DNA of 64,000 bases from Anaerolineales bacterium (lineage in GTDB: Bacteria; Chloroflexota; Anaerolineae; Anaerolineales; E44-bin32), in the NCBI GenBank assembly GCA_037382465.1, contig JARRPX010000005.1:6224-70223 (forward strand), written 5' to 3'. The notes below the pieces were generated by a model that made no database searches, had not been told where the DNA came from, and saw only the letters and a list, made by a program, of their open reading frames with translations. This document shows, piece after piece, positions 9,015 through 29,819 of the stretch (its first letter is position 1; each line of letters starts with the position of its first letter). The translations under genes and the position numbers were made by a program.

Positions 9015-9023
9015 GATTCTTTT

Positions 9024-10529
<1,506 letters not shown>

Positions 10530-10904
10530 AATCAGTACCTTTCAATTCCCCAGATGTTACGAGCGATTCATATCCAACAGGGAATAGAAGCGGATGAAAA
10601 AGAGGTAATTCACGCTCGTCGCGAAATGGAAGTGAATCGCCTCTCGTCATATCTTCTTACGGGAGAATATTATCATCAACAAGCCAGTAGACCAATTTTC
10701 GTGTTGGATGGCTCATCGCATTCTCCTCGTCCGTTAAAATACCCCGATGCATTCGTGTACTGCTCAATTAGCGCGTTATCACTTTTTGGTTCTCACCTCC
10801 TCTGATCGTCAGGAAAGGGCTTCCGGATAAAGAACCTATCTCTCGGTGAACTCAATCCAAAATTGTTTGTGTCGATTTATACACGTTTATGCTGTCACAT
10901 AGGA

Positions 10905-10950
10905 GAGGTGGCTGAGCGGCAAATTGAAATCACCTCACTCAGCCAGCCTC
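10905..10950 (-). terminator. Stem-loop 20 nt downstream of the 10971..12743 gene (12-bp stem with one bulge, 21-nt loop); no U-tract
   Basis: gaggtggctgag (10905..10916) pairs with ctcagcca(g)cctc (10938..10950). It separates the hydrolase genes from the glpK upstream region. Confidence 0.35.
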
Positions 10951-10970
10951 GCCTTTGCTTACATCCGCCT

Positions 10971-12743
10971 CTACCCGAAGGAGTAGAGCGTGTTGCATGC
11001 GACCAGGTACCAGGTTACAAACAGTGTGTTTATGGCCGCACCGACATATATCTTTCCCGTCTTCCGAAAGTAGTAGGTCGATACGAGAGCGATGGCCGGT
11101 ACAATGGCAAACAACGCCAGTCCATTGATCAACCCCAATCCGCCAGGACCGAAGTTGGACGGAGCACCAAAGAACGTCAATGGAATGTAGTATCGAGCTT
11201 CCAGGATCAAAAACCCGATCAAGAGCATGAAGACATTCACGAGCATTTCTCGGGCGAAGCTCGCTTTGCCGTTTTTGGGTCGTAACGTCCCGTGAAGCAC
11301 AACCGCCAATGGGAAGAAGTAGATCGCGAGTGGGATCACGTAGGCGAACATCACCAGGAAGTGCCGGAAATCCGTGGTTTTGAGGGTTACTACCCAGAAA
11401 CGGAAGTCCACCTTCAACAGCGCGGTGATGACAGACAGGATCAGATAACCGATCGAGATGACGGTCAGCGCCAGCAGGAAGGACTTGCCGATCTTCTTCC
11501 AATCGAAGCCAACGCCATCCCACATGAAACCATAGTTGACACCTGTTGCCCCAGCCTTCTTCCCAATTGCGTAGTAGCCGACGACGAGCATCAGGATCGT
11601 CAAAAGACCCACTACGAAGAGCCACCCGACGAATCCGGTTGTCACAGGCTCTAAGTGGAATGGATTCGGCATGAAGAATTTAAGGAAGAGCCACATCAAA
11701 GTAACGGGGCCAAGCGCGGCGGTAATGATGGCAAACACCCACCACATCGTGCCGACATTGCCTTTGTACTCTGGAATGCGGTCCTTGAGGGTGCCGAAGT
11801 AGGATGTCTTCAACAGGACACCTCCCATCCCCATCAGGAAAATGACGAAACCGACGAACGCTGTCCCCGTTCCGAGAACCTTTAGCGGCCAAATTTGGCT
11901 TGAAGCCGGGATATCCTTGCCGCCTTTAAGCGTCATTCCGAACCAGGTAATCGCATTCCCGATAGAGGTCGGATCATCTGTAGAAATCGGATGATCACCC
12001 CAGTGGAAGTAGAAAATCCTCGCCGTTCCGGCTTCGATGGACCCGTAGAGATGACCCGGGATCACGGGCTGATCTGTGCCATAGGCCGCCATGGCGGCCG
12101 GCATGTTGGGAATTTCAGCTCCGTTGGGAGCGCCAAAGTTCGGTGGAACCTCGGTGTGCTTGCCCACGCTGATGGCCCAGTTCGTGAGCTCGGGGCATGA
12201 ATCTGTGCAGCCGGAATCCATAAAGAACAACGCCCGATATGCGCCAGGATTCTGCTGGGCAGCGGCATCGATCGCACTGCCGCCCATCGACATCCCGATC
12301 ATGCCTACATTATCGGGGTCCACGATGTCCAGGCTCCGAAGGAATCTGAGTCCATCGGAAGCCCCGATGCCGTTCAAAGAAGGCGTGCCCATTGGCGCTT
12401 TGGGTGTGTTGGATTTGTCTGATAGGCCGTGGTTGTCGAGATCCATGGCCAGGACGACGTACCCGCGGCGTGCGAGTTCCAGGGCTGTGTTTGCCATGTA
12501 TTCCTTGCTGTTGTTAAAGCCATGGGTAGCCAACACGGCTGGGGCGGGGTGACCAGTTGTAACACCATCCGGAATCCAAAGGTAACCAACGTAGTAGCCG
12601 TTATAGACGCCGTAGAACCTTACCTCGCGAATCTTCGCTGCGCCTTCACCTGTTTGCACCCATCCGGCTAAAAGGCTGCCAATCAGGATTAATAGAAGCG
12701 CTATGATCAAGGTTCGCATTGGCTTGCTTTTTTCTTCAGACAT
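10971..12743 (-). CDS. Membrane-anchored alpha/beta-hydrolase fused to a C-terminal domain of about 8 TM helices (function unknown)
   Basis: AAGGAG RBS. N-terminal signal anchor, then HGFNNSKE, ELARRGYVVLAMD, nucleophile elbow GMSMGG, MDSG and WGDHP (Ser/Asp/His candidates). The C-terminal ~300 aa are hydrophobic with about 8 predicted helices. Confidence 0.7.
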   Translation of the reverse strand: MSEEKSKPMRTLIIALLLILIGSLLAGWVQTGEGAAKIREVRFYGVYNGYYVGYLWIPDGVTTGHPAPAVLATHGFNNSKEYMANTALELARRGYVVLAMDLDNHGLSDKSNTPKAPMGTPSLNGIGASDGLRFLRSLDIVDPDNVGMIGMSMGGSAIDAAAQQNPGAYRALFFMDSGCTDSCPELTNWAISVGKHTEVPPNFGAPNGAEIPNMPAAMAAYGTDQPVIPGHLYGSIEAGTARIFYFHWGDHPISTDDPTSIGNAITWFGMTLKGGKDIPASSQIWPLKVLGTGTAFVGFVIFLMGMGGVLLKTSYFGTLKDRIPEYKGNVGTMWWVFAIITAALGPVTLMWLFLKFFMPNPFHLEPVTTGFVGWLFVVGLLTILMLVVGYYAIGKKAGATGVNYGFMWDGVGFDWKKIGKSFLLALTVISIGYLILSVITALLKVDFRFWVVTLKTTDFRHFLVMFAYVIPLAIYFFPLAVVLHGTLRPKNGKASFAREMLVNVFMLLIGFLILEARYYIPLTFFGAPSNFGPGGLGLINGLALFAIVPAIALVSTYYFRKTGKIYVGAAINTLFVTWYLVACNTLYSFG

Positions 12744-13086
12744 GGCCTATCTCCTTTACGAATAATCGGCTTTACATCATTAGTGCGTTCATGTTCTCGC
12801 AATATTCAACACCTCCCCGGCCTGGCTTTCCTTCTGACTGAATGGCATTCGCATTGAGAAATTCAAGGATGATGGGAAACTGATAGATGACTTCACCTCC
12901 GCGGCGATCCTGTTTTCTGGCGTAGTGATCCCGCAACAGAGCTTCCGGCAATAAGTGCAATCTGAAAATTGTACTTATTGCCGTCAACCCTGCCGGCCTA
13001 TCTGACGATCGGGTTGATCTCCCCGACTTCAGATTTGGGCCACGCATCAATTTTTAACCGGCTGCCATCCCCGGCGACGATCCCTT

Positions 13087-14880
13087 TCATACCCCAACCA
13101 CGGAACCGGCAGCCAGGAACCAGATGGCCATCATGGCGATGACCAACGCCCCCAGGTAGATCCGTCCCGTTCGCCGGAAGAACCAGGTGAGCATGAAGAG
13201 CAGCACGACAAATTCAGGGATGTATACCCAAAGCATCAGGATCCAGATGGCAAAGGGCGCTCCGACCGTACCTGTTAATCCCCAGAACGGTCCCGTACCA
13301 GCCAGCATCCACGGGATGTACTGAAGCGCCCAGACCAGGAAGAGACCCATCAGGCCCGCATAGAGGTTCTTGAGCCACCACATCCACAGGGACTTATTCG
13401 GTGTGCTGTATTCCGGCTGGCGGGCCTGACCGAACAAGAACACTCCGCCATTGATCAGGAAGAAAAGCAGCGCCGGGATCAGGTAGATCAAGAACAAGCC
13501 TACACGCTGCGGTGTTTGAAATTCGCGCATGTATGGCCAGGCGAATCGGAATTCCTCTCCCAAAGCCCACCGTGAGATTCCCGCCAGGACGTACATCCAA
13601 AGGAACAGGATTACACCCAGCAAGAGGGTCTTCCCCAGGATGCCCCAATCAAACCTCGTTTTTTCCTTATCGAAGCTTACGCCCAGCTCGTAGGTGGTGA
13701 CGCCTTCCTTTTTGGCTGATGTCCGGTACCAGAGGTAGATCAGAACTGCGGCAACAACGGCATTGATCAAGAACCAGAGCGCCGTTCCGTTGCCCATCAG
13801 CAGTTTCATGAAGGGAAGTTTTTCCAGGACGTCCCCCTTGTAGGCAAAAAACAGCCAGAACACACCGCCGAGGAGCGCGTTGATCGTGGCGAAAATCCAC
13901 CACTTTCCTTTCGAAGCCACATATCCTGTCGGCATCGGTTGAGCTACAGGGGAGAAGTACGCCGTACTCAAAAGCAGATTGGTCAGCGGGATCAATGAGG
14001 CGATTGCACCCAGCAGCGCGATCAGGCCGAATATCTCTTTGAACATGTAGACCTGGCTCGAGGGTTCGATCCAGTGTGCATCTTTTGCGCCATCCATGAG
14101 CGAAAGGCGGAACCAGTCTACGGCCTCCGCTACGGCTCGTGGCGAGAGCGACATGAGATGGTGATCTCCCCAGATCAATGCGGCTCTACGGGCGGTTCCG
14201 TCCTCGAAATTCCCATACGTTGTGTCCCATTCAACCGGAGCTGAGAGGCCGAAATCCGCGGGATTTACAGGAATTAACGCTTCCATGGAGTTGGTGAACT
14301 CGGCCATCGTAGGCTTCAGGAAAAGGACGTCGCTGTTATCGGGTGTACCCGTTCCGCCATCTTGGGAGACGATCGCCTTGACATCACCGTTGGCATCGGC
14401 GATTGCGAATGCCGTAACCCCGCCCATGGAGTGTCCCGTCGCCCCCATTTCGGACGCATCGACAAAAGGCAGGCTCTTCAAGTAGAGATAGGCCGGATTG
14501 AGGCCCATCCCTCCCAGCGGATCACCAAAGAAACGTCCGAAATTGAAGGCGCCTTCGGAGTCGCCATGCCCAAGGCCGTCGGTCGCAAGCACAACGAAGC
14601 CGCGTCTTGCGAGTTCTACGGAATATCCTGCTTGAACATCCTTATCGTTTTGATAGCCATGCATATTAATGACGGCTGGTGCTGGATTTTCTGCAGTGAC
14701 CCACGTCGGACGATAGAGTTTCGCAGCGATCGTTTCGCCCGAAGGCCCAATAATCCTGATGAACCTGATGTCGATCTTGCCGAAGTCCCGCTCAAGATAA
14801 TGAGCCATTACAGCCGAGAATGTGATGATGACCAGGATGATGAGCAACCCGTACCAATTCTTTCGAACTTTGTTTTCCAT
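13087..14880 (-). CDS. Paralogue of 10971..12743: alpha/beta-hydrolase::8-TM fusion protein
   Basis: GGAGGA RBS. Same architecture and shared motifs: PAPAV, HGYQNDKD, ELARRGFVVLATD, GHSMGG, QDGG, WGDHH, and C-terminal FFRRTGRIYLGA versus YFRKTGKIYVGA in the neighbour. Confidence 0.7.
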   Translation of the reverse strand: MENKVRKNWYGLLIILVIITFSAVMAHYLERDFGKIDIRFIRIIGPSGETIAAKLYRPTWVTAENPAPAVINMHGYQNDKDVQAGYSVELARRGFVVLATDGLGHGDSEGAFNFGRFFGDPLGGMGLNPAYLYLKSLPFVDASEMGATGHSMGGVTAFAIADANGDVKAIVSQDGGTGTPDNSDVLFLKPTMAEFTNSMEALIPVNPADFGLSAPVEWDTTYGNFEDGTARRAALIWGDHHLMSLSPRAVAEAVDWFRLSLMDGAKDAHWIEPSSQVYMFKEIFGLIALLGAIASLIPLTNLLLSTAYFSPVAQPMPTGYVASKGKWWIFATINALLGGVFWLFFAYKGDVLEKLPFMKLLMGNGTALWFLINAVVAAVLIYLWYRTSAKKEGVTTYELGVSFDKEKTRFDWGILGKTLLLGVILFLWMYVLAGISRWALGEEFRFAWPYMREFQTPQRVGLFLIYLIPALLFFLINGGVFLFGQARQPEYSTPNKSLWMWWLKNLYAGLMGLFLVWALQYIPWMLAGTGPFWGLTGTVGAPFAIWILMLWVYIPEFVVLLFMLTWFFRRTGRIYLGALVIAMMAIWFLAAGSVVGV

Positions 14881-16167: not shown

Positions 16168-17172
16168 CTAGGGACGTCGTTTGCGGAGTTGATCGAGCAT
16201 GATCGCGGTTACGATGACCAAACCCTGTACGGCTTGCAGCCAGTAGGCCGAGACACCAACGAGCACCAGGCCGTTGCGCAGCACCTGCATCACCACGGTT
16301 CCAATCAGTACGCCCAGGATTGTACCTTCTCCACCCATGAGGCTGGTGCCGCCGACTACCGCAGCGGCGATGACATCCAGTTCATAGCCGTACGCAGCCG
16401 TAGGCGCAGCTACGCCCAGGCGCGCCGTCATGAGCACACCGCCGATAGCAGTAAGCAGCCCACACAGAGAATAAACCATGATCTTGACACTATCCGTGTT
16501 GATGCCGGAGAGGCGCGTGGCCGTCTCGCTGCCTCCGACGGCGTATATTCGGTAACCCCAAACGGTCCGGTTAAGGAATACTGCAGAGATCGTGGCGAAG
16601 ACGAGAGTGAAGATGAGTGGTAAAGGTACGCCGATTGTGCCAATGGGAATATCGTGCTGTCCGAGATACCGGAAAGAGGGGTCTAATTCACGTACCGGCC
16701 AACCGCCCGTTAATCCGTAACAAAGTCCGCGAGCCATGAGCAGCGTGCCTAGCGTAGCGATAAATGGGGGCAGTTTACCCTTGGTAATCATCAAGCCATT
16801 CGCAATCCCGACCAACAAACCTGCCACCAGACCCCCGATCACCGCGACCGGGACGGGTATCCCCTCAGCCAACAGCATGGCGCTGGCCAGGCCCGAAAGG
16901 CCCATGACTGAGCCTACGGATAGATCAATCCCGGCAGTGATGATCACCATGCATTGCCCGAAGGCGCTGAGCGCGATCCAGGAGAACGCCCGCAGGATAT
17001 TGAATATATTCGTGCTGGTGAGAAAAGTGTCGGTGTAAAGCGAGAGAAATACCACCAAGACCAATAAAATCAGCGCCACACCGAATTCTTGCCGGCCGAC
17101 GATCCTTCGCCAGGTAGTTCCGCGAGCCCGTATCTGGATATCTTCGCTCCTTGCCGTGTTTATGGTGCTCAC
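16168..17172 (-). CDS. CUT2 (ribose-type) sugar ABC transporter permease
   Basis: RbsC-like: [76 protein letters not shown]. Overlaps the upstream ATPase gene by 4 nt. Confidence 0.9.
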
Positions 17173-18782
17173 GTTGTTTCTCCTTTCGGCGCGCCCTCCG
17201 AGATAATGTCGTTATCCAGTTCTCCGCTTGCGTAGGCGATGATTCGTTCTTGTGTGGCATCCTTGCGGTCTAAAATTGCCGCAACTCTTCCTTCCGACAT
17301 CACCAGGACTCGATCGCTCATTCCCAGGATTTCCGGCAGCTCGGATGAGATCATGATGATGCCGATTCCCGAGGCCGCCAATTTACTCATCAACGCATGG
17401 ACCTCGGCCTTCGCGCCGACATCGATACCGCGCGTGGGTTCGTCCATGATCAAGATTTTGGGATCCGAGGCCAACCACTTGGCGAGGACCACCTTCTGCT
17501 GGTTGCCGCCGGAGAGGAACATCGCCTTCTGCTCTAAATAGGGCGTGCGGATGCTCAGTTTGTCGACATACTCCTGAGCTGTTTCCCGAATCGCACCCTG
17601 CTGAACCCAACCGAAACTGGCATGTTCTCCAAGCGTCGGCAGAACGATGTTCTCCGAAACGGCCATCCTGAGGACGAGTCCTTGTAACCCACGGTCCTCG
17701 GGAACCAGCCCAATACCAGCTCTTACGGCGTCGACGGGGGAACGAATGTTCAACGGGACGCCTTGGAACAGGATTTCTCCAGCTTCCTTTCGATCAGCGC
17801 CGAAGATCAAGCGCGCTGTTTCCGTTCGTCCGGCGCCAACGAGGCCGGCGAAACCCAGGATCTCGCCTTTATGTAGGGTGAAACTCACGTCTTTGACCTG
17901 ATCCCCGCCCGTCAAGCCCCGTACTTCCAACAGCGGCGCTCCGATCTCCGCCTCCTTCTTCTGGAACATGTCCGCCACCAACTCGCGGCCCACCATCAAG
18001 TGAATGATCACTTCGGTCGTCGCCTCTTGGATCGATAAACCGCCCACAAACCTGCCGTCCCGCAGGACCACAACGCGATCGGCGATGCGGAACACCTCTT
18101 CCAGGCGGTGTGTGATAAAGATGACGGCAATGCCTTGTTTTTTCAATGATTCGATAATGCCGAATAATGTATCAACTTCATCCTCACCCAGCGCCGAAGT
18201 GGGCTCGTCCATGATGATGATACGGGCATCAACGGCCAAGGCCTTGGCAACTTCGACCATTTGTTGTGCGGCGACGGATAAATCCTGGATGAGCGTGGAA
18301 GAAGATATTCGTGCGCCAACGCGCTCCAGATACATCTGTGCTTCTTTTTCCATCCGACGACGATCGACAAAGTTGAGGATCCGTCCCACGCCGCGCTCGC
18401 GAGGTTCGCGAGTGATGAAGATGTTCGCCGCCGCACTTTGATTGGGAGTCAGGTTGAATTCCTGGTAGATGATAGAAATGTTTAATTCCTGTGCGTGATG
18501 TGGGTTTTCGATCTCGATCTCTTTTCCGTCCAGCAAGATCTTCCCGGAATCTTTCCGGTATGCCCCACAGAGGATTTTCATCAACGTCGATTTTCCGGCC
18601 CCATTTTCACCAACGAGCGCAACGACTTCACCAGCCGCGACTTCAAAATCTACATTTTTCAACGCCTGGACCCCGGGGAATGCCTTGGATATGTCCTTCA
18701 TCACGAGTAAGGATTCTTGTTTTTCGGGCAAGGTGTACTCCAATATCGGGGGTTGTGGTGCGGGGTTATCCCCGCACCACAA
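17169..18782 (-). CDS. Sugar ABC transporter ATP-binding protein with two fused NBDs (RbsA-like); the exact start is uncertain
   Basis: GENGAGKST Walker [12 protein letters not shown] Walker B and ITHRLEE H-loop in NBD1; [17 protein letters not shown] and [11 protein letters not shown] in NBD2. Confidence 0.92.
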
Positions 18783-18866: not shown

Positions 18867-19910
18867 TCATTCCAAACATGCGTAAGGATCGGGCAGATCT
18901 TGGGTGAAGTCGCTCGATGCCCACATCTCGGCCATGACGTCCACGTTGCACTCGGTCACGATGTCCATGCCGGAGTCGGTCCAGTCATCGTACGTGGCGC
19001 CGGAGACGATGTAGTCGTAGATCATCTGCACCGTGTCGTAGCCCCAGCCCCAGTATTTCTGTCCGACCAGGCCCTGGATGTAGCCGTCCTGCATGAACTC
19101 CAGCTGCACCGGCAGCGTGTCGAAAGCGATGGTGACCAGGCCGTTGTTCAGCGCCGCGTCCTCCCAGAGAGGCATAGAGCCGCGCTCGGCGAACAGCGGC
19201 CACAGGCCAACCAGGAACCAGCCATCCAGGTCGGGATGTGCCTGCATGGTTTCCTCGATCACCTGCACGCCCAGGTTGATGTCGTCGTTGCAGTAGACGG
19301 TCGAGACGATCTCGATGCCGGGGTAGTCGGCCACGCCGTCCTGGAAGCCGCGGATGCGCTCCTCCAGGTTGAAGGCGCCGGGGACGCCGGTCAGCAGGGC
19401 CACTTTGCCTTCCTCGCCCATGAATTTCACGAGCAACTCGGCAGCGGCCAAACCGCCCTGGTAGTTGTCCACGCCCAGGTAGGTGAAGCGGTCGCTGTCC
19501 GGAGAGTCTGAATCCCAGGTCATCACGGGGATGCCGGCGGCGACGGCCTTGTTGATGGGGTCTTCGCAGGCGGTCGGATCGTTGCAGGAGATGCCGATGG
19601 CGTCGACGCCCTTGGCGATCACGTCTTCCATGACCCGGGTTTGCTCAGCAGCATCCGAGGCCACGGAACCCACGTAATCGACGGTCACATCGACGCCGGT
19701 CGAGGCGCTCAGCTCTTCGGCTTTCTTGAAGGCGCCATCGCGCCCGACCTCGAAGACCGGGTTGTTCAACGCCTTGGGGATCCAGGCGATGGTCAGCGAT
19801 TCTAATCCGGCATCGCTGGGCGCTTCGGTTTTCTTCGCACACCCTGCCAATGCAGCGACGAGAATTATAGCGAGGGCAATTATCACGAAAAGATAGGTCT
19901 TTCTCCGCAT
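18867..19910 (-). CDS. Sugar ABC transporter substrate-binding lipoprotein (periplasmic binding protein type I, RbsB-like)
   Basis: Signal peptide plus lipobox [24 protein letters not shown] and FDTLP resemble ribose/galactose-type binding proteins. First gene of the SBP-ATPase-permease operon. Confidence 0.85.
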
Positions 19911-20348
19911 CTCTTCCTCCTTGGGTAAAGAGACTTTAGATTACTCACCGAGTACGACGATCATAAAGGACTCTTCCACCTCCTTAATATAATATTTTCA
20001 AAGCGGAACTCGAAATTGGATGTGTTTCGGAAAGCCTCTCGGCCCGGGTATCGTGAGCGGATGTACATAGTGTATAGAATCGATGCGCGGGCATCAATGC
20101 CTGTACCCCCAATAGAGGCATGGGATAACTCATGCTTTATGCGTAGGATATCCCCTTTCCTCCCATATACTCGGCTTTATAACTGCGTCTCATCCGTGAT
20201 TTCAGGCTATACTGCAAGGGAAATAGGCTGTAGGCTGCGGGATGAGAAATCCCCCAAGAACCTTCGTTCGATCCATATTCATCTTGTCTTCCATCCGCTT
20301 AATCCTGAAGGTTTGACGATATGACCTATACATTAGTAGAATGGAAAC

Positions 20349-21401
20349 ATGGCCGAGGTCCGCATTATTCTGGCTGATGATCATGCCATCGTACGCGCAG
20401 GTATCCGCAATGCGCTGCAAGAGATGGATGATCTGGTAATCGTCGCCGAAGTGGGCGACGGTCCTTCACTTTTCAAAGCACTGTCGGAGACAGAGGCGGA
20501 TTGCGTTTTAATCGATGTCACGATGCCAGACTTCGATCCCATTCCTTCCATAGAAAAAATCCGCTCTCGCTATCCGGTGATGAAGGTTCTTGTCGTCAGC
20601 GCCTATGACGACGACTTCTATGTACAGGGTCTGCTGGGGGCCGGGGTTAATGGATATCATCTCAAGGATCAACCGCTTAGCGATCTGCGTCTGGCTGTAC
20701 AACGTGTGCTGGACGGCGGACGGTGGTTGTCCGGATCGTTGATCGATAAATTGATCAGCTACGGGGAATCGACCGTTCAGGCGCCAGCCCTGACCACCCG
20801 TCAGCGCGAGATCTTGAGATTTCTGCAGCAAGGGTTGGACAATCAATCCATCGCGCGTGAAGCCGGATTGAGTGTCGGCACTGTCGAAAACCATCTCACC
20901 CGTATTTACCGGCAGCTCAACGTGCAGAGTCGGTTGGAAGCGGTACGCTTTGTGATCGACCATCCGGAGGTGCTTGCCTCACCCGGCCAAGCAGCTGTGG
21001 ACGGCGCGAGTTTTCCCGAGATCCCTGCCGGAGAGGGGATTACGTTATTGCTGGTGGACGATAATGCACGCTACCGCTGCGAACTACGTCGTATGATCGG
21101 CCGGGTGTGCCCCCATGCTTTAGTTTACGAAGCTGAGAACACGCGTGAAGCGGTGAATTTAGTTGAACGTGTGACCCCACAATTGGTATTCATCGATGTC
21201 ATTTTACGGGAAGAAAACGGTATCAGTTGTTTGCGCCGCATCAAGGCGATCTCGCCACAATTGCGCGTCGTCCTGATCAGCGCCTATCCGGATCGGGAGT
21301 TCCACAAGTCGGGTGTGGACGCCGGCGCCATCGCTTTCATCGACAAGAAAAATTTGGACGCTGATACGCTGCATCAGATGATAAGTGATGTCGTTTTATA
21401 G
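20349..21401 (+). CDS. Response regulator with REC - LuxR/NarL HTH - second REC architecture
   Basis: REC1: ILADDH...VLIDVTMPD...VVSAYDD...GYHLKD. HTH: LTTRQREILRFLQQGLDNQSIAREAGLSVGTVENHLTRIYRQL. REC2: LLVDDN...VFIDVIL...VLISAYPD...AFIDKK. Confidence 0.9.
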   Translation: MAEVRIILADDHAIVRAGIRNALQEMDDLVIVAEVGDGPSLFKALSETEADCVLIDVTMPDFDPIPSIEKIRSRYPVMKVLVVSAYDDDFYVQGLLGAGVNGYHLKDQPLSDLRLAVQRVLDGGRWLSGSLIDKLISYGESTVQAPALTTRQREILRFLQQGLDNQSIAREAGLSVGTVENHLTRIYRQLNVQSRLEAVRFVIDHPEVLASPGQAAVDGASFPEIPAGEGITLLLVDDNARYRCELRRMIGRVCPHALVYEAENTREAVNLVERVTPQLVFIDVILREENGISCLRRIKAISPQLRVVLISAYPDREFHKSGVDAGAIAFIDKKNLDADTLHQMISDVVL

Positions 21402-21443: not shown

Positions 21444-22469
21444 TTGGTGTTGGATCAAGTGGTTATGCAGTTGCCAGCGAAGTTGAATAATTCTCTCTCG
21501 TTGAGTTCGATCGTTCGGTTCTGGCGTCACTTGGTCCAGCGACGTGAATTTGCGGTATTGTTGCTGTTTCTCATCCTCTGCACTCTCTTAAGCCTGCTGA
21601 CAGATACCTTTCTCACTTTCGACAATTTATCGAACCTCGCCCGCAACTTTTCCTGGATCGCGATCATCGCCTTCGGTCAGAGCATGGTGATCATTATTGG
21701 TGGTCTCGACATGTCTGTAGGTGCGACGATGGCGTTGGCCGGCCTCATCACCGCATATTGTATGGACGAGAATATCGGCCTGCCGGTGGGTGTTGCCGTG
21801 ACCTCGGGGCTTTTCGTCGGAGTTCTCGTTGGATGGATTAATGGTTTCATGATCGCTCGCGCGAAGCTTCCATCCTATGTCGTCACCCTGGGCACGATGA
21901 GCGTGGTGCGGGGCATTGCGTTCAGCCTGACAGGCGGCTGGCCGGTACGCAATCTGCCGGAGAATTTTCGTGTTATCGGCCAACACGAGATTCAATTCGG
22001 TTCGTGGGGAATTCCGGTGCCGTTCCTGTTGACGGTGATGACGGCGCTTGTCGTAGGTTTGTTGCTCGATAAAATGGTGTTGGGCAGGTACGTTCATACA
22101 CTCAACCGGGGCGAGCGGGCGCTGCTTCTGGCCGGCGTCAACGTTAACCAGGTCACCACGCTGGTTTACACGCTCTGCGGACTTCTGGCGGCATTTGGAG
22201 GAATAGTCATGACCGCGCGTCTGGGAGTCGCTGCTCCCACCGCGGCAAGCGGGTACGAACTGGACAGCATCGCCGCTGCGGTCGTTGGCGGCACCAGCTT
22301 GTATGGAGGCGAAGGCAGTATCGTGGGTGTGTTGCTTGGCGGTGCCGTACTCCAAACCGTGCGGAATGGACTGGTCCTGCTGGGCTTTCCCGCCTACGGA
22401 CACACCGTCGCCGTAGGCGCAATGATCCTGGCGGTCATCCTATTGAACTACTGGCGACGTAAACACTAA
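21444..22469 (+). CDS. CUT2-type ABC permease, close paralogue of 16168..17172 (alternative ATG at 21465)
   Basis: FSWIAIIAFGQSMVIIIGGLDMSVGATMAL and [44 protein letters not shown] are nearly colinear with the permease of the neighbouring importer. Confidence 0.9.
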   Translation: MVLDQVVMQLPAKLNNSLSLSSIVRFWRHLVQRREFAVLLLFLILCTLLSLLTDTFLTFDNLSNLARNFSWIAIIAFGQSMVIIIGGLDMSVGATMALAGLITAYCMDENIGLPVGVAVTSGLFVGVLVGWINGFMIARAKLPSYVVTLGTMSVVRGIAFSLTGGWPVRNLPENFRVIGQHEIQFGSWGIPVPFLLTVMTALVVGLLLDKMVLGRYVHTLNRGERALLLAGVNVNQVTTLVYTLCGLLAAFGGIVMTARLGVAAPTAASGYELDSIAAAVVGGTSLYGGEGSIVGVLLGGAVLQTVRNGLVLLGFPAYGHTVAVGAMILAVILLNYWRRKH

Positions 22470-22479: not shown

Positions 22480-24075
22480 ATGACGCAGTTATTGAAGGCG
22501 ATCGACATCTCGAAAAGCTTCGGCACCTTACCGGTCATCCGGAATGTGAGCCTGGAAATTTCGCCCGGCGAAGTCGTGGGCATTGCCGGACAGAGCGGAG
22601 CCGGGAAATCTGCATTGACCATGCTGCTCACAGGCTTTTTGACTCCCGACGAAGGCAAGTTGTTCCTTGAAGGGCAGCAACTGCGCTGGCCGTTCAACGG
22701 ACGGGCTCTCGGAATCGAGGTTATCCATCAACACCCAGATTTGGCTGAAGACCTCGACGTCAGCAGCAACGTATTTCTGGGAAATGAAATTGGATGGTCG
22801 TTGGGGGATGATTGGCTCAAATTCCCCAATCGGCGGCGAATGGCCAAGGAGACGGTCCGTATCCTGACGCAATTAGGGGCCAACCTCGAGGACCCACACG
22901 AGATCGTTGCCAATCTTTCGAGCGAGCAACGTCAATTAATTGCGATAGCTCGCGTAATGGTCAATCCATCGAAGTTGATCATCGTTGACAATCCGACGCT
23001 TGCGCTCAGCTATCCATACCAGCACAAACTCCTATCGCTCATCGAAAGCTGGCAGCAGCAGGGAATCGCCGTCCTGATCAACAGCGACAACCCCGATCAC
23101 TTGTTGGCAGTTACCGACCGTATCATCGTTCTGCGGAACGGGCGCTGCGACAACGAGTTCCAAACCGACGACACGAATCGTGAAGAGGTGGTCGCTGCGA
23201 TGGTGGGAACCATCGACCGTCAACAGCTCACGCCAATCCTCTGGGCGCTGGACAGCTATTATCGTGCTCGTGAGCAGGCTGAAAAGCTGTCCCAGCGACA
23301 GGCCATGCTCGAAAAGGGCCTGGCTTCGGGAGAAATGATCAATCGACAGTTCATCAGCCAGTTGGCCAATCAAATCGACGCGCTGGACCAGGTTAACGCG
23401 GCGCTGCAAAACGCACAGCGCCGCTTGTTGACCGAACTCGAGCAGGAACGCAAAGGCCTGGCGCGCGAAATCCACGATCAGGTAATCCAGGATATGTTGG
23501 GAGTGAATTATCGCCTGGAGGAAATTGAATCCTATGATAATTTGGCGCCCGCGGTAAGAAACGAGCTGTCCAGCCTGCAAGACAGAATTCGCACGCTGGT
23601 GGACGACTTGCGCGATATCTGCGGCAACTTGCGCCCGCCGACAATCGACAGTTTGGGTCTGGGACCGGCCATTGGTTCGTACGCGAGAGATTGGACCAGG
23701 CGATCCGGAATCCCGGTGACCCTGGATATTGATCCCGAGCTTGGGCGCTTGCCGGAAGCCATCGAGTTGTCGATCTTCCGCATCGTGCAAGAGGGGTTGA
23801 ATAACGTGCACAAGCATTCCGGCGCCAGCGAATCCAGAGTCGAACTACGGCGCACCCTGCCGCGCACATTGATGCTCTCCGTATCTGATAATGGACAGGG
23901 CGTTGACGGCGATTTCGATCTAACCATGCTGCCCGAAAGCGGCCACTATGGACTGTTGGGCATCAGCGAGCGGGTGGTGCTGTTGGGTGGGCGGCTTAAA
24001 TTGCAGAATAATGAAGACGGCGGCTTGCTGCTCCAGGTTGAGATCCCCCATCCCCGATTGGAAATGACTACCTAG
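22480..24075 (+). CDS. Fusion protein: single ABC nucleotide-binding domain (degenerate catalytic motifs) - coiled-coil linker - NarL-class histidine kinase (HisKA_3 + HATPase_c)
   Basis: Walker A GQSGAGKS (22588..22611). Signature-like LSSEQ (22915..22929). Walker B LIIVDN (22975..22992). Q/E/L-rich linker. H-box AREIHDQVIQD (His codon 23473..23475). EGLNNVHKH, SDNGQG and GHYGLLGISERV are the kinase ATP-lid motifs. Confidence 0.85.
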   Translation: MTQLLKAIDISKSFGTLPVIRNVSLEISPGEVVGIAGQSGAGKSALTMLLTGFLTPDEGKLFLEGQQLRWPFNGRALGIEVIHQHPDLAEDLDVSSNVFLGNEIGWSLGDDWLKFPNRRRMAKETVRILTQLGANLEDPHEIVANLSSEQRQLIAIARVMVNPSKLIIVDNPTLALSYPYQHKLLSLIESWQQQGIAVLINSDNPDHLLAVTDRIIVLRNGRCDNEFQTDDTNREEVVAAMVGTIDRQQLTPILWALDSYYRAREQAEKLSQRQAMLEKGLASGEMINRQFISQLANQIDALDQVNAALQNAQRRLLTELEQERKGLAREIHDQVIQDMLGVNYRLEEIESYDNLAPAVRNELSSLQDRIRTLVDDLRDICGNLRPPTIDSLGLGPAIGSYARDWTRRSGIPVTLDIDPELGRLPEAIELSIFRIVQEGLNNVHKHSGASESRVELRRTLPRTLMLSVSDNGQGVDGDFDLTMLPESGHYGLLGISERVVLLGGRLKLQNNEDGGLLLQVEIPHPRLEMTT

Positions 24076-24520: not shown

Positions 24521-25534
24521 ATGCCAACAGTTCTTGATGTAGCCAAGCGTGCAGGTGTCGCACCGATCACGGTTTCTCGGGTGATCAATAACTCGGGCTA
24601 TGTCAGCCAAGCTACTCGGGAGCGTGTCGAAGCAGCGGTCAAGGAGTTGGGATATGTTCCCAACACGCTGGCTCGCGGACTCCGCTCGAAACAGACGAAG
24701 ACTCTGGCGCTGGTCGTCACGGATATCACCAACCCATACTTTACTTTGATGGCCAGAGGGGTTGAGGACGCGGCGGGGATCTCCGACTATACGGTCGTTT
24801 ATTGCAATACGGATGAATCTGAAGCAAAGGAAGAAAAATATGCCAATCTATTGGCCCAGCGGCAGGTAGACGGCGTGCTATTGGTTCCTTCGTGTGGGAA
24901 TGTAAAGACGATCAAGTTCTTGCTCTCGAACGACATCAACGTTGTGGCGCTCGATCGCCGCGTTTCGGGCGTCAAAATCGATTGTGTACGCTCTGACTCG
25001 GAAAATGGCGCCTGTCGATTGATCGAGTTGCTCATCGGACTGGGGCACAAACGGATCGCTACAATTACCGGACCCAAAGATGTTTCAACTTCAGTCGACC
25101 GTGTAGCTGGCTATCGGCGAGCATTGGTCGAATCGAGCTTGGCGGAATACGAGCAAGTTCATTATGGGATGTTCAACCAGGAGAGTGGCTACAAATTCAC
25201 CAGGCAGGTGATGATGCATTCGCCAAAGCCGACGGCCATATTTGGTGCCAACAACTATATTGCGATTGGGATTATTAAAGCTTTGCGTGATCTCGAGTTC
25301 GATGTGCCTGGCGACGTCTCTGTTGTCGCATTTGATGATTTTCCCGAATCGATGCTCCTGGCGCCTTTTTTAACCATTGCTTATCAGCCAGCCTACGAGA
25401 TGGGGCAAATGGCGACTGAAATGTTGCTGAAACGTATTTCAGGTGAAATTACTGGAGAATGTCAAAACTTGGTATTGCCTACCGAAATCATCGAACGCGA
25501 ATCGGCTGGCCCAATCTGGAATAGAAGCAGGTGA
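24521..25534 (+). CDS. LacI-family transcriptional regulator
   Basis: MPTVLDVAKRAGVAPITVSRVINNSGYVSQATRERVEAAVKELGYVPNTLARGLRS is the canonical LacI HTH plus hinge. It is followed by a PBP type I sugar-binding core. Confidence 0.95.
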   Translation: MPTVLDVAKRAGVAPITVSRVINNSGYVSQATRERVEAAVKELGYVPNTLARGLRSKQTKTLALVVTDITNPYFTLMARGVEDAAGISDYTVVYCNTDESEAKEEKYANLLAQRQVDGVLLVPSCGNVKTIKFLLSNDINVVALDRRVSGVKIDCVRSDSENGACRLIELLIGLGHKRIATITGPKDVSTSVDRVAGYRRALVESSLAEYEQVHYGMFNQESGYKFTRQVMMHSPKPTAIFGANNYIAIGIIKALRDLEFDVPGDVSVVAFDDFPESMLLAPFLTIAYQPAYEMGQMATEMLLKRISGEITGECQNLVLPTEIIERESAGPIWNRSR

Positions 25535-25562
25535 CACTGGGAAGCGTATATTTTTATCTCGT

Positions 25563-25580
25563 TGTGGTAACGTTACCACA
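25563..25580. promoter_or_regulatory. LacI-family operator (18-bp perfect palindrome) upstream of the ABC importer genes
   Basis: tgtggtaacgttaccaca contains the same GGTAACGTTACC core as the site at 24455..24466. Confidence 0.6.
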
Positions 25581-25779
25581 TTGCTCTTCGATCTCGTAAT
25601 CTGGGAAGAGGCTAGGTGTTGATGGCGCAACAAAGCAGCGACAATTCCATCCCGGGGATTCCATTTTTACACTGCCGGCCCTTGTCAGTATTGAACGGTC
25701 AGCTTTCGTGTCGTTGGTGGAGTGATTCATTTCCTTGTCGGCAAGAGAGTTTTGTAGCTCGAAACTCAAGGAGATTGCG

Positions 25780-26574
25780 ATGAAACCCAAAACAGAAGCC
25801 ACGCCCATTGTGGAAATGCGGCATATCAAGAAGAGCTTCGCTGCCGTCCGGGCGCTGCGCGGCGTAGATCTGACACTGCACGAGAATGAGGTGTTGGGGT
25901 TGGTGGGCGACAACGCCGCGGGTAAATCCACATTGATGAAAGTTCTCAGTGGCGCCTACATCCCTGACGGTGGAGAAATCTTCATCGAAGGTAAGAAAGT
26001 GCATTTTAACAATCCGTTGGATGCGCGCCAAATGGGGATCGAGATGGTTTACCAGGATTTGGCCCTGGTCAACCACCTGAGTGTGGCAGCCAATGTTTTT
26101 CTTGGACGGGAAGAGATGTCCGTACAAATGGGTTTGTTTGGCGTGATCGACCAGCGTCATATAGAAGAAGAGACGCAGCGCCTGCTCGATCGTCTCAAGA
26201 TTGACATCTCCTCCGTACGCTTGGGTGTGGAACGACTTTCAGGTGGCCAGCGTCAAGCTGTGGCCATTGCCCGGGCGACGGCGTTCAACGCCAAGGTCAT
26301 CATCATGGATGAGCCTACGGCGGCTTTGAGTGTGGCGGCTATTGACAAGGTGCTCGATCTGGTGCGGGAGCTCAAGACGCAGGGTTGTTCGATCATCATC
26401 ATCAGCCACCGCCTGGAGGACATATATCGGGTGAGTGAGCGAATGGTGGTGCTGCGTCACGGGCGCAAAGTCTGCGATTATCCCGTCTCTGGTGACATTC
26501 ATGATTTCCGCGAGCGGGTGGTCGCTTACATCGTTGGCGCCCGAAATGATTTTCCCGAGGCAGAAGTTGATTGA
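25780..26574 (+). CDS. Sugar ABC transporter ATP-binding protein, single NBD (FrcA-like)
   Basis: AAGGAG RBS (25767..25772) 7 nt before ATG 25780; the ORF-track start at 25735 is probably too long. [26 protein letters not shown] and ISHRLED are all canonical. Confidence 0.92.
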
Positions 26575-26599
26575 TGCGCGTGAAGGAAAGGGTGCTTTC

Positions 26600-26803
26600 A
26601 TGATCTCCTCAAACGCGCTGGAGACGTTTGGCATGATGTATTGCTCTGCGGTTCTTCTCACGGGAGATCTAACGACGGTTCGCGGCCGTGTTGAAACGAC
26701 GCCGATTGAAGTACTCAATCCTGCCACCGGACCGGCCTCGTTAGTGAGAGTCGGCGTAGCGGCGACTGATAAAGGGCCAAACAAAAGGAAAGAGCAGCCA
26801 TGA
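26600..26803 (+). CDS. Possible 67-aa small ORF filling the ATPase-permease gap (hypothetical)
   Basis: ATG preceded by GAAGGAAAGGG. Its stop overlaps the permease start as ATGA (26800..26803). No recognisable motif, so this rests on position only. Confidence 0.25.
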   Translation: MISSNALETFGMMYCSAVLLTGDLTTVRGRVETTPIEVLNPATGPASLVRVGVAATDKGPNKRKEQP

Positions 26804-27810
26804 GCGAGATATTAACGGAACAAATTAGCAGGGATGATGCAGTTCGCGCCGGGGAGGCAGCCGTGAATCGCGGCTTGGCTGTGGACAGGTTCATTCGCTT
26901 ATTTGCAGTTGCTGTGTTGTTTACTATCTTCTCAATAACGGCCAGGAACTTCTTTACCGTCCGAAGCATTCTCACGCTTGCCTTGCAAACCAGCACGATC
27001 ACCCTCATGGGTATCGGTGTGACCTTCACGATCATCACGGGCGGTATCGATCTCTCTATCGGATCGATCGTTGCCCTGTCCGGCACCATCGCCGTGATGG
27101 TTGCCCTTGAAGGAGTCCCCATCTGGCTCAGCATGATCGTCGGGCTGCTTGTCGGAGTCGTGAGCGGTCTCATCAACGGACTGATGATCACCAAAATGAA
27201 GCTGCCTCCGTTCATCGCAACGCTCGGCATGATGATGGTTGCCAGAGGGGTTGCGCTTACGATTACGAATGCAAATGCAAAGCCGGCGCCTGAAGGGTTC
27301 GGTGAGTTGGGCAACGGCACCATTCTGGGGACCGGACCGGAATTCCCGGGTCTATCCTACCCGCTGTTGATCATGATCGCAGTGGCGTTCGTCTTTCATT
27401 TCATTCTCGCGAAAACGCGGCTCGGAAGGTACACCTACGCCGTGGGGTCGAACGAAGAGGCGGCACGGCTCGCCGGGATCAAGATCCATCAGGTTAAAAT
27501 CATCAATTACATTTTCTGCGGCCTGCTTACGGCATTGGTCGGCATCATCCTCGCCTCCCGCATGATCACATCCCAACCCAACAGCGCAATTGGCTACGAG
27601 ATGAACGCCATTGCTGCCGCCGTCATCGGCGGCACAAGCCTCATGGGTGGCGTAGGCACAGTAGCAGGGACGGTGATCGGTTCTTTCATCATCGGCATAT
27701 TAACCGTGGGACTCACGATGCAGGGTGCAAATTATTTCATGCAGCAGATCGTTATCGGGCTCGTGGTTATCGGCGCAGTAACAGTCGACCGACTCAGAAA
27801 CCGAAAGTGA
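26800..27810 (+). CDS. CUT2-type sugar ABC transporter permease
   Basis: [42 protein letters not shown] and [19 protein letters not shown] resemble RbsC/FrcC. Confidence 0.9.
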   Translation: MSEILTEQISRDDAVRAGEAAVNRGLAVDRFIRLFAVAVLFTIFSITARNFFTVRSILTLALQTSTITLMGIGVTFTIITGGIDLSIGSIVALSGTIAVMVALEGVPIWLSMIVGLLVGVVSGLINGLMITKMKLPPFIATLGMMMVARGVALTITNANAKPAPEGFGELGNGTILGTGPEFPGLSYPLLIMIAVAFVFHFILAKTRLGRYTYAVGSNEEAARLAGIKIHQVKIINYIFCGLLTALVGIILASRMITSQPNSAIGYEMNAIAAAVIGGTSLMGGVGTVAGTVIGSFIIGILTVGLTMQGANYFMQQIVIGLVVIGAVTVDRLRNRK

Positions 27811-27948
27811 GAGACGAAGGATCGCGATATCGGACTCCCCACTTTGTTCATGTCTCGAGAGGAGGTGCTCGCTTCATACTGATGAAAATTCGGCAACGCT
27901 ACTACGATCCGTTCTATGAACCGACTATTTCGAAGGAGAAGAGATAAT

Positions 27949-29010
27949 ATGAATAAGAAACTGTTCGCTCTAACAAGCCTTCTCATGGTCATTTCTCTCG
28001 CCTTGGCAAGCTGCGGCGCTCCGGCGACTGCGGAAGTCATCGAGAGAGAAGTTGAGGTGACGAAGATCGTCGAAGTAACCTCCGCCCCCGCTGCAGTGGT
28101 AGAAGAGGGTGGGGAGATTGCGGTCATCGTCAAGACGGGCAACTCCAGCTTCTGGCAGAATGTGCAGACTGGGGCAATGGACGCCCAGAACGAGCTTCAG
28201 GATAAGACTCCCAAGCTCTCGGTCACCTTCCTTGGAGCCCAGTCAGAGAGCAACATCAACGAGCAGATCAACATCGTCGAGAGCGCAATCGATCGCGGCG
28301 TGAAGGCGATCGTGCTTGCGCCCTCAGATACCCAGGCTCTCATCCCGGTGGTAGAGAAGGCAAAGGCTGCCGGCATTCCTGTGGTCATCATCGACTCGCT
28401 GCTCGAAGGCCCGGAAGATAACTACGTATCATTCCTTGCGACCGACAACTATGCAGCAGGAGAAGCTTGTGCCAAGAGGCTGATCGAGGAAGTAAAGGCC
28501 AACACGGGCGGCGATAGCGGCAATATTGCCGTTATGTCTTACGTTGCCGGCGTGGGCTCCGAGATTGGCCGCGTGGGTGGCTTCAAGGATTACATCGCGG
28601 CGAACTCGAATCTGGAGGTCGTCACGACTCAGTACTCCAACGCCGACATGCCCACCGCACTCGACCAGACGACGAATGTGCTGCAAGCAAACCCAGATCT
28701 GGTGGGTATCTTCGGCGCCAACGAGCCGACCGCCATTGGTATGGGCCGCGCGATCGAGCAAGCAGGCCTTGCAGGGACGATTGCCGCGATTGGCTTCGAT
28801 GGCAATAGTGTCCTGGCAGAAATGGTCAGAAACGACACGCTGCAGGCCATTGCCGTTCAAAGCTCCTATAACATGGGCTACTTGGGCGTCATGACTGCCT
28901 ATGCCGTTGCCTTTGAAGGCGAGACGGTTGACCACTATGTCGACACTGGCTTCATCATGGTCGACAAGGACAACATCGATTCTCAGGATGCTCAGAACGT
29001 GCTCTACTAG
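27949..29010 (+). CDS. Sugar ABC transporter substrate-binding lipoprotein (PBP type I)
   Basis: GAAGGAG RBS. MNKKLFALTSLLMVISLALASCG is a lipoprotein signal. IAVIVKTGNSSFWQNV, VKAIVLAP and IGFDG resemble RbsB. The ORF-track start at 27916 is probably too long. Confidence 0.88.
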   Translation: MNKKLFALTSLLMVISLALASCGAPATAEVIEREVEVTKIVEVTSAPAAVVEEGGEIAVIVKTGNSSFWQNVQTGAMDAQNELQDKTPKLSVTFLGAQSESNINEQINIVESAIDRGVKAIVLAPSDTQALIPVVEKAKAAGIPVVIIDSLLEGPEDNYVSFLATDNYAAGEACAKRLIEEVKANTGGDSGNIAVMSYVAGVGSEIGRVGGFKDYIAANSNLEVVTTQYSNADMPTALDQTTNVLQANPDLVGIFGANEPTAIGMGRAIEQAGLAGTIAAIGFDGNSVLAEMVRNDTLQAIAVQSSYNMGYLGVMTAYAVAFEGETVDHYVDTGFIMVDKDNIDSQDAQNVLY

Positions 29011-29030
29011 TTGCCAATTAGGTCTATCGT

Positions 29031-29062
29031 GGACGGTCTGTGCCTGAAAACACAGGCCGTCC
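29031..29062 (+). terminator. Stem-loop 20 nt after the binding-protein gene (12-bp stem including one G-U pair, 8-nt loop); no U-tract
   Basis: ggacggtctgtg / cctgaaaa / cacaggccgtcc. Confidence 0.45.
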
Positions 29063-29345
29063 ATGCCTGGTTGGCAGGGCGGTCAAAGATGGTTGCATTT
29101 CAGTCGGCGACGAGAGAATAGTCTGGGTGGGAAGTCCAAGAACACAGGACGGCATGCCTTGACGATGGTAAGAATTGTTGCAACTTATGACGCTAACGGT
29201 TTCCTATTGCGCTATGGGCAATGATGTGAGGAAGATAGTGGCCTCGAGTCGAGTACGAACAAGTATAGTTCTACGTATCTGGTCCAACCGAAAGGGGCAC
29301 GCTTCGCAGAGCAGTTAGCTTGGTTGAGTAAAGGAGAGGCTGGTT

Positions 29346-29819
29346 ATGTTGATTGGAATATCCCCTTTGATTTCTCCTGATTTACTGGCAGTCTTGTACC
29401 GCATGGGACATGGGGATGAAATCGTGCTCGCCGATGCGCACTTTCCAGGTGAGACTTGTGGTCAACGTGTGTTGCGCGCAGATGGTTTGAAGATCGCGGA
29501 TTTATTGGATGCAATCCTGCCCCTTTTTATTCTGGATACCTATGTCGAAAGCCCACTAATCATGATGGCGGTGGTTGCAGGCGATCAGGCAGATCCGGCC
29601 GTGGAGGTTTCATATCGGCTGATCATCGACAAATACTGGCCCAACACACCGCCTATTCAACGCATTGATCGTTTTGAGTTTTACGACAGGGCGAAACAAG
29701 CATTTGCCGTCCTCATGACCGGCGAGACGGCAAAATATGGCAACATCATTTTGAAGAAAGGAGTGACTCCCATTATTGATAATGAGGGAATATGGCCAAT
29801 AGGTGATAGTCATAAGTAA
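29346..29819 (+). CDS. fucU: L-fucose mutarotase (RbsD/FucU family)
   Basis: [34 protein letters not shown]...RADGL...[31 protein letters not shown] is colinear with E. coli FucU as I recall it (ISPLISPELL..MGHGDEI..DAHFP..KYGNILLKKGVTP). Confidence 0.9.

Follow-up and report, generated by a model that had tools for sequence, protein, structure and literature searches.

Degenerate, non-catalytic sites are known from several ATP-binding cassette (ABC) proteins, including TAP1, CFTR (site 1) and SUR. In two-component signalling, the state of a transporter is relayed to a histidine kinase without a ligand-binding domain in PstSCAB-PhoU-PhoR; a transporter paralogue is the receptor for the NarL-class system UhpC-UhpB-UhpA, which induces the real transporter; and a periplasmic-type binding protein is the primary ligand receptor in LuxP-LuxQ, TorT-TorS, ChvE-VirA and the clostridial three-component sets. 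Signalling from transporter to kinase is also known for BceAB-BceS and the SLC5/STAC kinases (cited in PMC11109136). According to a 2024 paper devoted to prokaryotic transceptors, these are rare, and it mentions no fusion of an ABC nucleotide-binding domain (NBD) to a kinase; our literature search, which was of incomplete coverage and is thus no proof of absence, found no description of one either. Here we analyse such an NBD-histidine kinase fusion, encoded in a 64,000-nucleotide stretch of an Anaerolineales metagenome-assembled genome (GenBank assembly GCA_037382465.1, contig JARRPX010000005.1, positions 6,224 to 70,223 of the forward strand; this whole stretch is called the window, and positions refer to it). 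The fusion resembles the degenerate ABC sites, Bce/Pst signalling, UhpC-UhpB and the SLC5/STAC or 5TMR kinases, but it belongs to none of them. We consider it somewhat more probable than not that it is a hydrolysis-impaired nucleotide switch, the signalling subunit of a receptor derived from an ABC importer, which relays the state of a binding protein and a permease to the kinase.

The gene and its parts are laid out as follows.

22480..24075, + strand: NBD-histidine kinase fusion gene (open reading frame of 531 aa; three-domain call by Pfam)
22480..23205, + strand: ABC nucleotide-binding domain, residues 1-242 (Pfam, BLASTP, Foldseek)
23218..23445, + strand: family-specific helical linker, residues 247-322 (AlphaFold helices, invariant columns)
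23446..24051, + strand: kinase core, with HisKA_3 (His332, 23473-23475), DxxxQ, and HATPase_c with N, G1 and G2 boxes (Pfam)

Pfam assigns residues 21-173 to ABC_tran (PF00005, 1.3e-24, 87.7 bits against a cut-off of 25), 323-387 to HisKA_3 (PF07730, 5.8e-12) and 429-524 to HATPase_c (PF02518, 1.9e-7). Neither Pfam nor the AlphaFold model reveals a transmembrane segment, a PAS or a GAF domain, so the ABC NBD is the sole input domain of a protein that is predicted to be soluble. The model has a mean pLDDT of 74.5, with most of the NBD between 80 and 93. The top Foldseek matches of this model are all ABC NBDs (target TM-scores 0.75-0.82), and the search with the whole model returned NBDs only and no fused analogue. 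The nearest kin of the NBD are the single-NBD and N-terminal-half ATPases of monosaccharide (CUT2-type) importers; by BLASTP it is 36% identical to the single-NBD ATPase of the window and 33% identical to the N-terminal half of its RbsA-like ATPase. Against the NCBIfam models, however, the AraG, XylG and RbsA N-halves give scores far under the cut-offs, the best being AraG with 131.8 bits (cut-off 689) and RbsA with 128.9 bits (cut-off 745), and the protein has one NBD only. The fusion is therefore related to the CUT2 ATPase family (RbsA/AraG/XylG/FrcA type), yet is no member of it, because it falls below the equivalog cut-offs and joins an NBD to a kinase. The kinase half is a regular member of the HisKA_3 group (NarX-UhpB-LiaS class) with an intact core: H332, D333, Q337, N442, D470, G472, G474, G488 and G491 are invariant in the family, as are both glycine boxes (D470xGxG and G488xYG). 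It matches the UhpB model at 2e-28, below the cut-off. About 100 helical residues lead from the C-terminus of the NBD into the dimerisation helix of the kinase, and the model places helices at 247-282 and 289-350, the second of which holds His332. Just after the NBD stands a near-invariant, family-specific segment, QLTPIxWALDSYYRAREQAEKL (residues 247-270, 23218-23290), which is better conserved than most of the NBD itself and might serve as a hinge that connects the NBD to the signalling helix.

We then read the nucleotide-binding motifs, whose positions were assigned from three independent and fully concordant alignments (HMMER, BLASTP and a MAFFT alignment of 124 sequences).

22588..22611, + strand: Walker A GQSGAGKS, residues 37-44, intact (alignments)
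22729..22731, + strand: Q-loop Gln84, intact (alignments)
22915..22929, + strand: deviant signature LSSEQ, residues 146-150 (codons CTT TCG AGC GAG CAA)
22975..22992, + strand: Walker B LIIVD followed by Asn171 (codons GAC-AAT at 22987-22992 for Asp170-Asn171)
23083..23091, + strand: H-loop position S202-D203-N204 (codons AGC GAC AAC)

A first-pass annotation, made from the letters of the window alone, had described an NBD with intact Walker A and Q-loop Gln and with three degenerate motifs, and this description held throughout. Asn171 (codon 22990..22992) lies under the catalytic Glu in all three alignments: HMMER sets vdnpt under lDEaT of the solved ABCB4/ABCB1 NBDs, and BLASTP pairs IIVDNPT with IIMDEPT of the ATPases of the window, whose conventional motifs, as quoted by the annotation, are present in the translations. 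The signature aligns as LSseQ under LSGGQ (HMMER) and as LSSEQRQ with LSGGQRQ (BLASTP), so that Ser148-Glu149 come to stand under both Gly and Glu149 replaces the second. The place of the H-loop switch His is taken by Asp203; the AlphaFold model agrees, since S202 closes a beta-strand and the following helix begins at 205, which puts D203 at the site of the His. The protein thus retains Walker A GxxGxGK[ST], Walker B hhhhD and the Q-loop Gln of a motor NBD, and lacks its catalytic Glu (Asn171), the small residues at positions 3-4 of LSGGQ (Glu149) and the H-loop His (Asp203). We considered the conserved His207 as a relocated switch His and ruled it out: the conventional single-NBD relatives read SHNLHD at this place, so that the nearby His is ancestral.

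To place these motifs in their family, we counted them in 81 species-level sequences and, separately, in 121 close homologues. A protein search had yielded more than 120 homologues of the same three-domain architecture (63-99% identity), named only as 'signal transduction histidine kinase' or 'ATP-binding cassette domain-containing protein [Anaerolineae bacterium]'; among species-representative genomes 118 relatives turned up, the best 80 of which (52-99% identity) were examined, the genome of the window itself being among these 80 loci (L001). The examined relatives are all Chloroflexota (Anaerolineae, Caldilineae, Thermoflexia, Chloroflexales/Roseiflexaceae and Ardenticatenaceae). When only the linker served as query against 1.84 billion representatives, 43 clusters came back, eight of 496-549 aa (six of them of 528-549 aa) and the rest fragments, which indicates one compact family. 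The control was a set of 38 conventional ATPases from the same loci, composed of 13 single-NBD proteins (overlap-filtered against the fusions) and 25 tandem N-terminal halves. Residues that bind the nucleotide are nearly 100% conserved: G37, G42 and K43 of Walker A are present in 121/121 close homologues, Gln84 in 120/121 and in 81/81 species, and Asp170 is invariant; Walker A is kept in all but 5 of 80 species. Judged by these alignments, the nucleotide-binding residues are under purifying selection. The residues of hydrolysis are lost or relaxed. The H-loop His is found in none of the 81 species (Asn in 47, Asp in 14, Lys in 10, others in the remainder) and never among the close homologues, versus 38/38 conventional ATPases. 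Glu149 is present in 81/81 species and 119/121 close homologues, while the fourth-position signature Gly is kept by all 13 conventional single-NBD ATPases. Position 171 is Glu in 47 species, Asp in 29, Asn in four and Lys in one (Asp in 99, Asn in 11 and Glu in eight of the close homologues), against Glu in 38/38 conventional ATPases. Fisher tests that ignore phylogeny give p = 5e-32 for the His, 1e-7 for the catalytic Glu and 3e-16 for the signature Gly. The deviations are conserved across the family and are more than chance. The five species with deviant Walker A read GSIGSGRS, DRAGAGKD, AGHGDGKS, AGHGGGKS and GRSGSGRT (L035, L048, L049, L055 and L078); some of these lineages may have taken a further step and weakened nucleotide binding itself.

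A neighbour-joining tree orders these losses. Every deep clade shows D-E, LSGEQ and Asn at the H-loop; Glu171 was changed to Asp at least twice, and Asn occurs only in the small clade of the window and once elsewhere. On this tree, Glu at 171 is ancestral and Asn171 a minority, derived and recent state of the sub-clade of the window; the lost switch His together with the acidic signature residue is the ancestral degeneracy that defines the family, the loss of the catalytic base being a later and local step. Such an order fits relaxed constraint on a site that already did not work as a motor, but as many lineages have long kept Glu171, some residual hydrolysis may persist in the family as a whole. 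The check proposed by the first-pass annotation, whether homologous fusions share the substitutions, turns out positive for Glu149 and for the missing His and negative for Asn171, which only four of the 81 species have; its statement that the hydrolysis residues are lost holds family-wide for the switch His and the signature, while position 171 is mostly Glu or Asp elsewhere. Its argument from an amide at this position applies to the sub-clade of the window and does not carry over to the family.

Two precedents bear on the function of such a site. In the non-catalytic site of Pdr5, which has Asn334 in Walker B and the signature LNVEQ, ATP is bound and not hydrolysed (PMC8421411). The likeness with the fusion is threefold, since this site 1 has Asn for the Walker-B Glu, Glu at the fourth position of the signature and no H-loop His, and its role is structural or regulatory (PMC8421411). 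We count this match of Asn, fourth-position Glu and lost His in favour of a non-hydrolytic switch. Differences are that Walker A is altered in Pdr5 and intact in the fusion, that in asymmetric ABC proteins one consensus site drives the cycle whereas a fusion homodimer would have both sites degenerate, and that the output is a transport pathway or channel there and a histidine kinase here. In CFTR, where the second Gly of LSGGQ corresponds to Glu149, an acidic side chain there has the opposite effect: G551D and G551E abolish ATP-driven NBD dimerisation through repulsion of the gamma-phosphate, and ATP becomes inhibitory, while G551S and G551K do not abolish dimerisation (PMC4178940). These CFTR changes are pathogenic losses of function, in contrast to Glu149, which is invariant in the fusions and for this reason selected rather than deleterious. 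The ATP-trapped closed dimer invoked by the first-pass annotation thus becomes doubtful. It is speculative that Glu149 makes closure reversible without hydrolysis. As the two precedents are opposed, the direction of the switch is not readable from sequence.

We next examined the permease encoded directly upstream.

21444..22469, + strand: dedicated RbsC-type permease paralogue, permS (Pfam BPD_transp_2)
22086..22148, + strand: remodelled cytoplasmic loop of permS, residues 215-235, RYVHTLNRGERALLLAGVNVN (clade comparison, 33 against 29)

The stop codon of permS lies 10 nt before the start of the fusion. With the neighbouring transport permease PermS shares 52% identity, with the third permease of the window 34%; the permeases encoded next to fusions group in a single clade, whose sister group is the transport permeases. 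Comparing 33 sensor with 29 transport permeases over the columns that are at least 85% conserved in the transport set, we found that the sensor permeases keep 32 of 38 columns and that four of the six changed columns fall in a single loop. This loop reads YA[VI]GGNxEAAxLSGI in transport permeases and Y[TA]Lxx[SG]ERALLVSGV in the sensor clade, GGNxEAA having become xxSERALL. A hydropathy scan places it as a hydrophilic stretch between hydrophobic segments, about 110 residues from the C-terminus. This is where we take the EAA or coupling loop of binding-protein-dependent permeases to lie; the loop of PermS, a putative EAA loop, is at the expected place and retains its conserved Gly. No PDB chain matches PermS by sequence at E <= 0.001, and the common class of RbsC-type importer permeases (BPD_transp_2) appears to be without an experimental structure.

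The remaining genes of the locus surround this pair.

20349..21401, + strand: cognate response regulator, REC - LuxR/GerE HTH - REC, 350 aa (Pfam)
18867..19910, - strand: sugar-binding lipoprotein (Peripla_BP_4), candidate ligand receptor (Pfam)
17169-18782, - strand: conventional tandem-NBD ATPase (open reading frame, Pfam; canonical DEPT and THR motifs)
16168-17172, - strand: conventional transport permease (open reading frame, Pfam)

The lipoprotein has below-threshold matches to rhamnose, AI-2 and ribose binding proteins and weak ones to TorT, ChvE and LsrB. Its gene and those of the conventional transporter are transcribed divergently from the sensor operon, and the intergenic region (19911-20348) yielded only weak two-copy matches in a search for operator repeats, none of them convincing. 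The transporter genes (16168..18782) are likely to be both the regulatory target and the source of the permease duplication. The architecture of the regulator is unusual, and both of its receiver domains appear to keep the acidic-pocket and phospho-acceptor residues.

Synteny was analysed in the 80 loci with retrieved flanks of up to 8 kb on each side. Full-length orthologues of the regulator adjoin the fusion in ∼60 loci, and a permease is adjacent to it in ∼35. Three arrangements occur. In arrangement A, that of the window among others, the order is regulator > permease > fusion; in arrangement B (∼15 loci) a binding protein, 55-71% identical to the divergently encoded lipoprotein of the window, stands between permease and fusion. 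Both orders recur in Anaerolineae, Caldilineae, Thermoflexia and Chloroflexales, and the conventional transporter is placed as in the window in L003, L005, L020, L030 and L053 as well. In arrangement C the fusion has no permease of its own and either heads an operon of binding-protein, ATPase and permease genes (L054) or follows a single-NBD ATPase and a permease (L022, L024, L028, L038 and L071). The former type is seen in Pelolinea/Anaerolineaceae (L054 at 8001-13915, L062-L067 and L073-L075), where the fusion comes first in a binding-protein/tandem-ATPase/permease operon with the regulator divergent; these fusions have all kept the catalytic Glu. In some Caldilineaceae (L020 at 3463-5483 and L053 at 3440-5305), the sensor operon is preceded by two or three tandem copies or fragments of the binding-protein gene.

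Stand-alone modules give the strongest evidence for the fusion as the sole NBD partner of its permease and for the module as a sensor for neighbouring uptake genes. In L011, L014, L015, L017, L035, L039 and L044, a binding protein and a permease are encoded together with the fusion as the only NBD; the modules of L011, L035, L039 and L044, which have arrangement B, contain no conventional ATPase within 8 kb on either side, and the same is true of L017 within shorter flanks. Two of them (L011, module at 1263-4507, and L035, at 9845-13229) adjoin a transporter of a different class, made of a SBP_bac_1 binding protein and two BPD_transp_1 permeases without an ATPase gene. This suggests that such a sensor controls uptake systems even though the two have no components in common.

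The signalling systems mentioned above differ from this locus in how transporter and kinase are joined. As with PstSCAB-PhoU-PhoR, the state of an ABC transporter is relayed in BceAB-BceS (PMC11109136, PMC11466899) to a kinase that lacks a ligand-binding domain of its own. In the Bce and Pst systems, however, separate membrane kinases touch the permease or an adaptor, the NBDs are active and of consensus type, and the permeases are BceB or PstAC; the fusion instead has a degenerate NBD linked covalently to a soluble kinase and goes with a permease of RbsC type. The hallmarks of Bce modules, a 10-TM (transmembrane-segment) BceB permease with a large extracellular domain and an intramembrane-sensing kinase with two TM segments that is separate from the ATPase, are absent from the fusion module. 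UhpC is a protein of the major facilitator superfamily (MFS) that works with a membrane-anchored kinase, without ABC parts and without fusion. A transporter-derived module joined covalently to the kinase is shared with the SLC5/STAC kinases (CbrA, CrbS) and the 5TMR kinases of S-component fold (PMC9100948, PMC11109136); there it is the membrane domain that is fused, whereas here it is the cytoplasmic energising domain, the membrane part being separate. With the binding-protein-dependent kinases, finally, the locus has in common a binding protein of the same fold family and a two-component system next to a sugar ABC transporter, but in those systems the binding protein contacts an extracytoplasmic kinase domain, while the fusion would need a relay through permease and NBD.

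Taken together, the architecture of domains, the conserved state of the motifs, the synteny and the dedicated permease clade with its altered loop outline what looks like a sugar importer converted into a receptor. From this we infer a physical complex, a loss of ATPase activity, a direction of signalling and a set of regulated genes. Two copies of PermS (21444-22469) would carry a fusion dimer in place of the motor ATPase, with the sugar-binding lipoprotein (18867-19910) docking outside. Docking of the liganded binding protein would shift the permease between two conformations and thereby change the spacing and orientation of the nucleotide-loaded, catalytically impaired NBDs, which would still bind Mg-nucleotide and act as a reversible nucleotide-dependent hinge, not as a motor. 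The linker helices (247-282 and 289-350) would pass this change on to the HisKA_3 core, which has the kinase boxes as well as the phosphatase motif DxxxQ, and bias it towards kinase or phosphatase activity, since the C-terminus of the NBD runs straight through the helical linker into the dimerisation helix, and the REC-HTH-REC regulator would then control the neighbouring sugar-uptake genes. That the NBD links permease to kinase is supported by the dedicated permease gene ending 10 nt upstream, by the recurrent adjacency of the two genes and by the existence of a dedicated clade. The proposal of the first-pass annotation that the NBD reports the permease state to the kinase is strengthened in this respect, while its second half, that the NBD is not a transport motor, is plausible for the protein of the window and unproven for the Glu-retaining majority. 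A heterodimer of the fusion NBD with a conventional NBD, with one consensus site, was considered and rejected as the main model, because Walker B and H-loop on one side and the signature on the other all deviate within a single polypeptide, so that both composite sites would be deviant, and also because HisKA_3 kinases are homodimers. A bolder version, which we regard as possible but doubtful, is that Chloroflexota have a self-contained receptor built wholly from importer parts and a two-component pair: a binding protein, a permease paralogue whose coupling loop is rewritten, the NBD-kinase fusion and the REC-HTH-REC regulator. It would signal sugar across the membrane without transport or ATP turnover by the NBD; Glu149 would make the nucleotide a reversible or inhibitory gating ligand, and the output would integrate extracellular sugar with cytoplasmic ATP/ADP. 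If true, prokaryotic transceptors would gain a class not described before, in which nature itself has tested how motions of the NBD can be read out.

Several points weigh against a hydrolysis-impaired switch docked on a dedicated permease. Some ABC proteins tolerate changes in the H-loop, the catalytic Glu is kept by 58% of the species, all deep clades included, and slow hydrolysis may be relevant in much of the family. The fusion could then be a working transceptor or flux sensor, in which a slow but essential ATPase drives real sugar import and the kinase acts as a readout of transport cycles, a mode proposed for BceAB-BceS. Such a protein would be expected to have the intact Walker A, Asp170 and Q-loop that we observe, as well as sensor permeases that retain most transport-conserved positions and stand-alone modules that amount to a complete importer gene set. 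We nevertheless think this unlikely: the switch His is gone from every member, the signature has invariably taken the residue with which CFTR loses its ATP-driven dimerisation, several clades, that of the window included, put up with Asp, Asn or Lys in place of the catalytic Glu, and the binding protein of the window is probably already served by the conventional transporter encoded there. By analogy with G551E in CFTR, Glu149 may prevent any ATP-sandwich dimer, in which case the 'hinge' would be unlike a normal NBD pair. Gene decay, or a domain without function, would also account for three catalytic motifs off consensus, but its chance is minute, the conservation data effectively refuting it: the reading frame is intact, 118 species-level relatives exist, many residues are invariant, the deviant Glu149 among them, and the NBD fold is predicted with confidence.

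Other points concern the contact between permease and NBD. Residues 215-235 of PermS are only probably the EAA/coupling loop that docks the NBD, and over residues 1-245 (except 240) no NBD residue is diagnostic for fusions with versus without a dedicated permease, so that there is no co-variation signal on the NBD side. Moreover, in ∼20 loci the fusion lies without its own permease in or beside a complete conventional operon, and a dedicated-permease model leaves these out. In such loci fusion dimer and motor ATPase might be rivals for the permease of a functional importer, whose occupancy the fusion would sense or which it would regulate, the dedicated permease being a later elaboration. Both types of arrangement C agree with this, the one in which the fusion stands directly upstream of binding-protein, tandem-ATPase and permease genes and the one in which it follows the genes of a single-NBD ATPase and of a permease whose EAA loop is canonical; so does the absence of any NBD residue that tells fusions with and without a dedicated permease apart. 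The arrangements of type C also sit on deep branches of the tree, and given arrangement C this may be the ancestral mode. As a general explanation it has a smaller chance than the transceptor, for in the window and ∼35 other loci the fusion is translationally coupled to a permease of its own that has the remodelled loop, and some modules have no conventional ATPase or permease nearby. Smaller again is the chance that the fusion is a cytoplasmic sensor independent of any permease, its NBD measuring ATP/ADP or only dimerising and its link with the transporter being purely regulatory. The conservation of nucleotide-binding but not of catalytic residues, the predicted solubility and three loci with regulator and fusion only (L047, L051 and L060) are in line with it, yet the Q-loop and the adjacent helical-subdomain segment SxNxFLGxE, which face the membrane subunit in ABC proteins, are strongly conserved, and tight operon linkage to a dedicated permease clade and a binding protein is hard to explain without contact.

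How information passes from transporter to kinase is an open mechanistic question in the Bce, Pst/PhoU/PhoR and DctA/DcuS systems, whose non-covalent contacts are difficult to trap. In the fusion, a single polypeptide runs from NBD through linker to dimerisation helix, so that opening and closing of the NBD should translate directly into kinase output, and the covalent link makes the coupling testable by standard assays and structure determination. The family also offers a natural Glu, Asp and Asn series at the catalytic position, on a background of lost His and an acidic residue at the position of CFTR G551, which is useful for the role of nucleotide binding in an ABC domain freed from powering transport. 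It would add a prokaryotic example to the few receptors that derive from transporters, and this in a phylum where signalling has received little study; it is of interest to the ABC and two-component fields alike and may provide a modular part for sugar biosensors.

Two further observations concern the other transporters of the window. The tandem ATPase (17169-18782) is asymmetric, as is usual for its class: NBD1 has the signature LSVAAQQ, and NBD2 has GAGRTE as Walker A and SSE for the H-loop, so that the conventional transporter already runs on one consensus site. A third, separate sugar cluster (24521-29819, + strand) has genes for a LacI-type repressor and for a single-NBD ATPase whose motifs are all of consensus type, together with a permease, a binding protein that best matches allose, ribose and rhamnose types, and a homologue of L-fucose mutarotase that scores above its cut-off.

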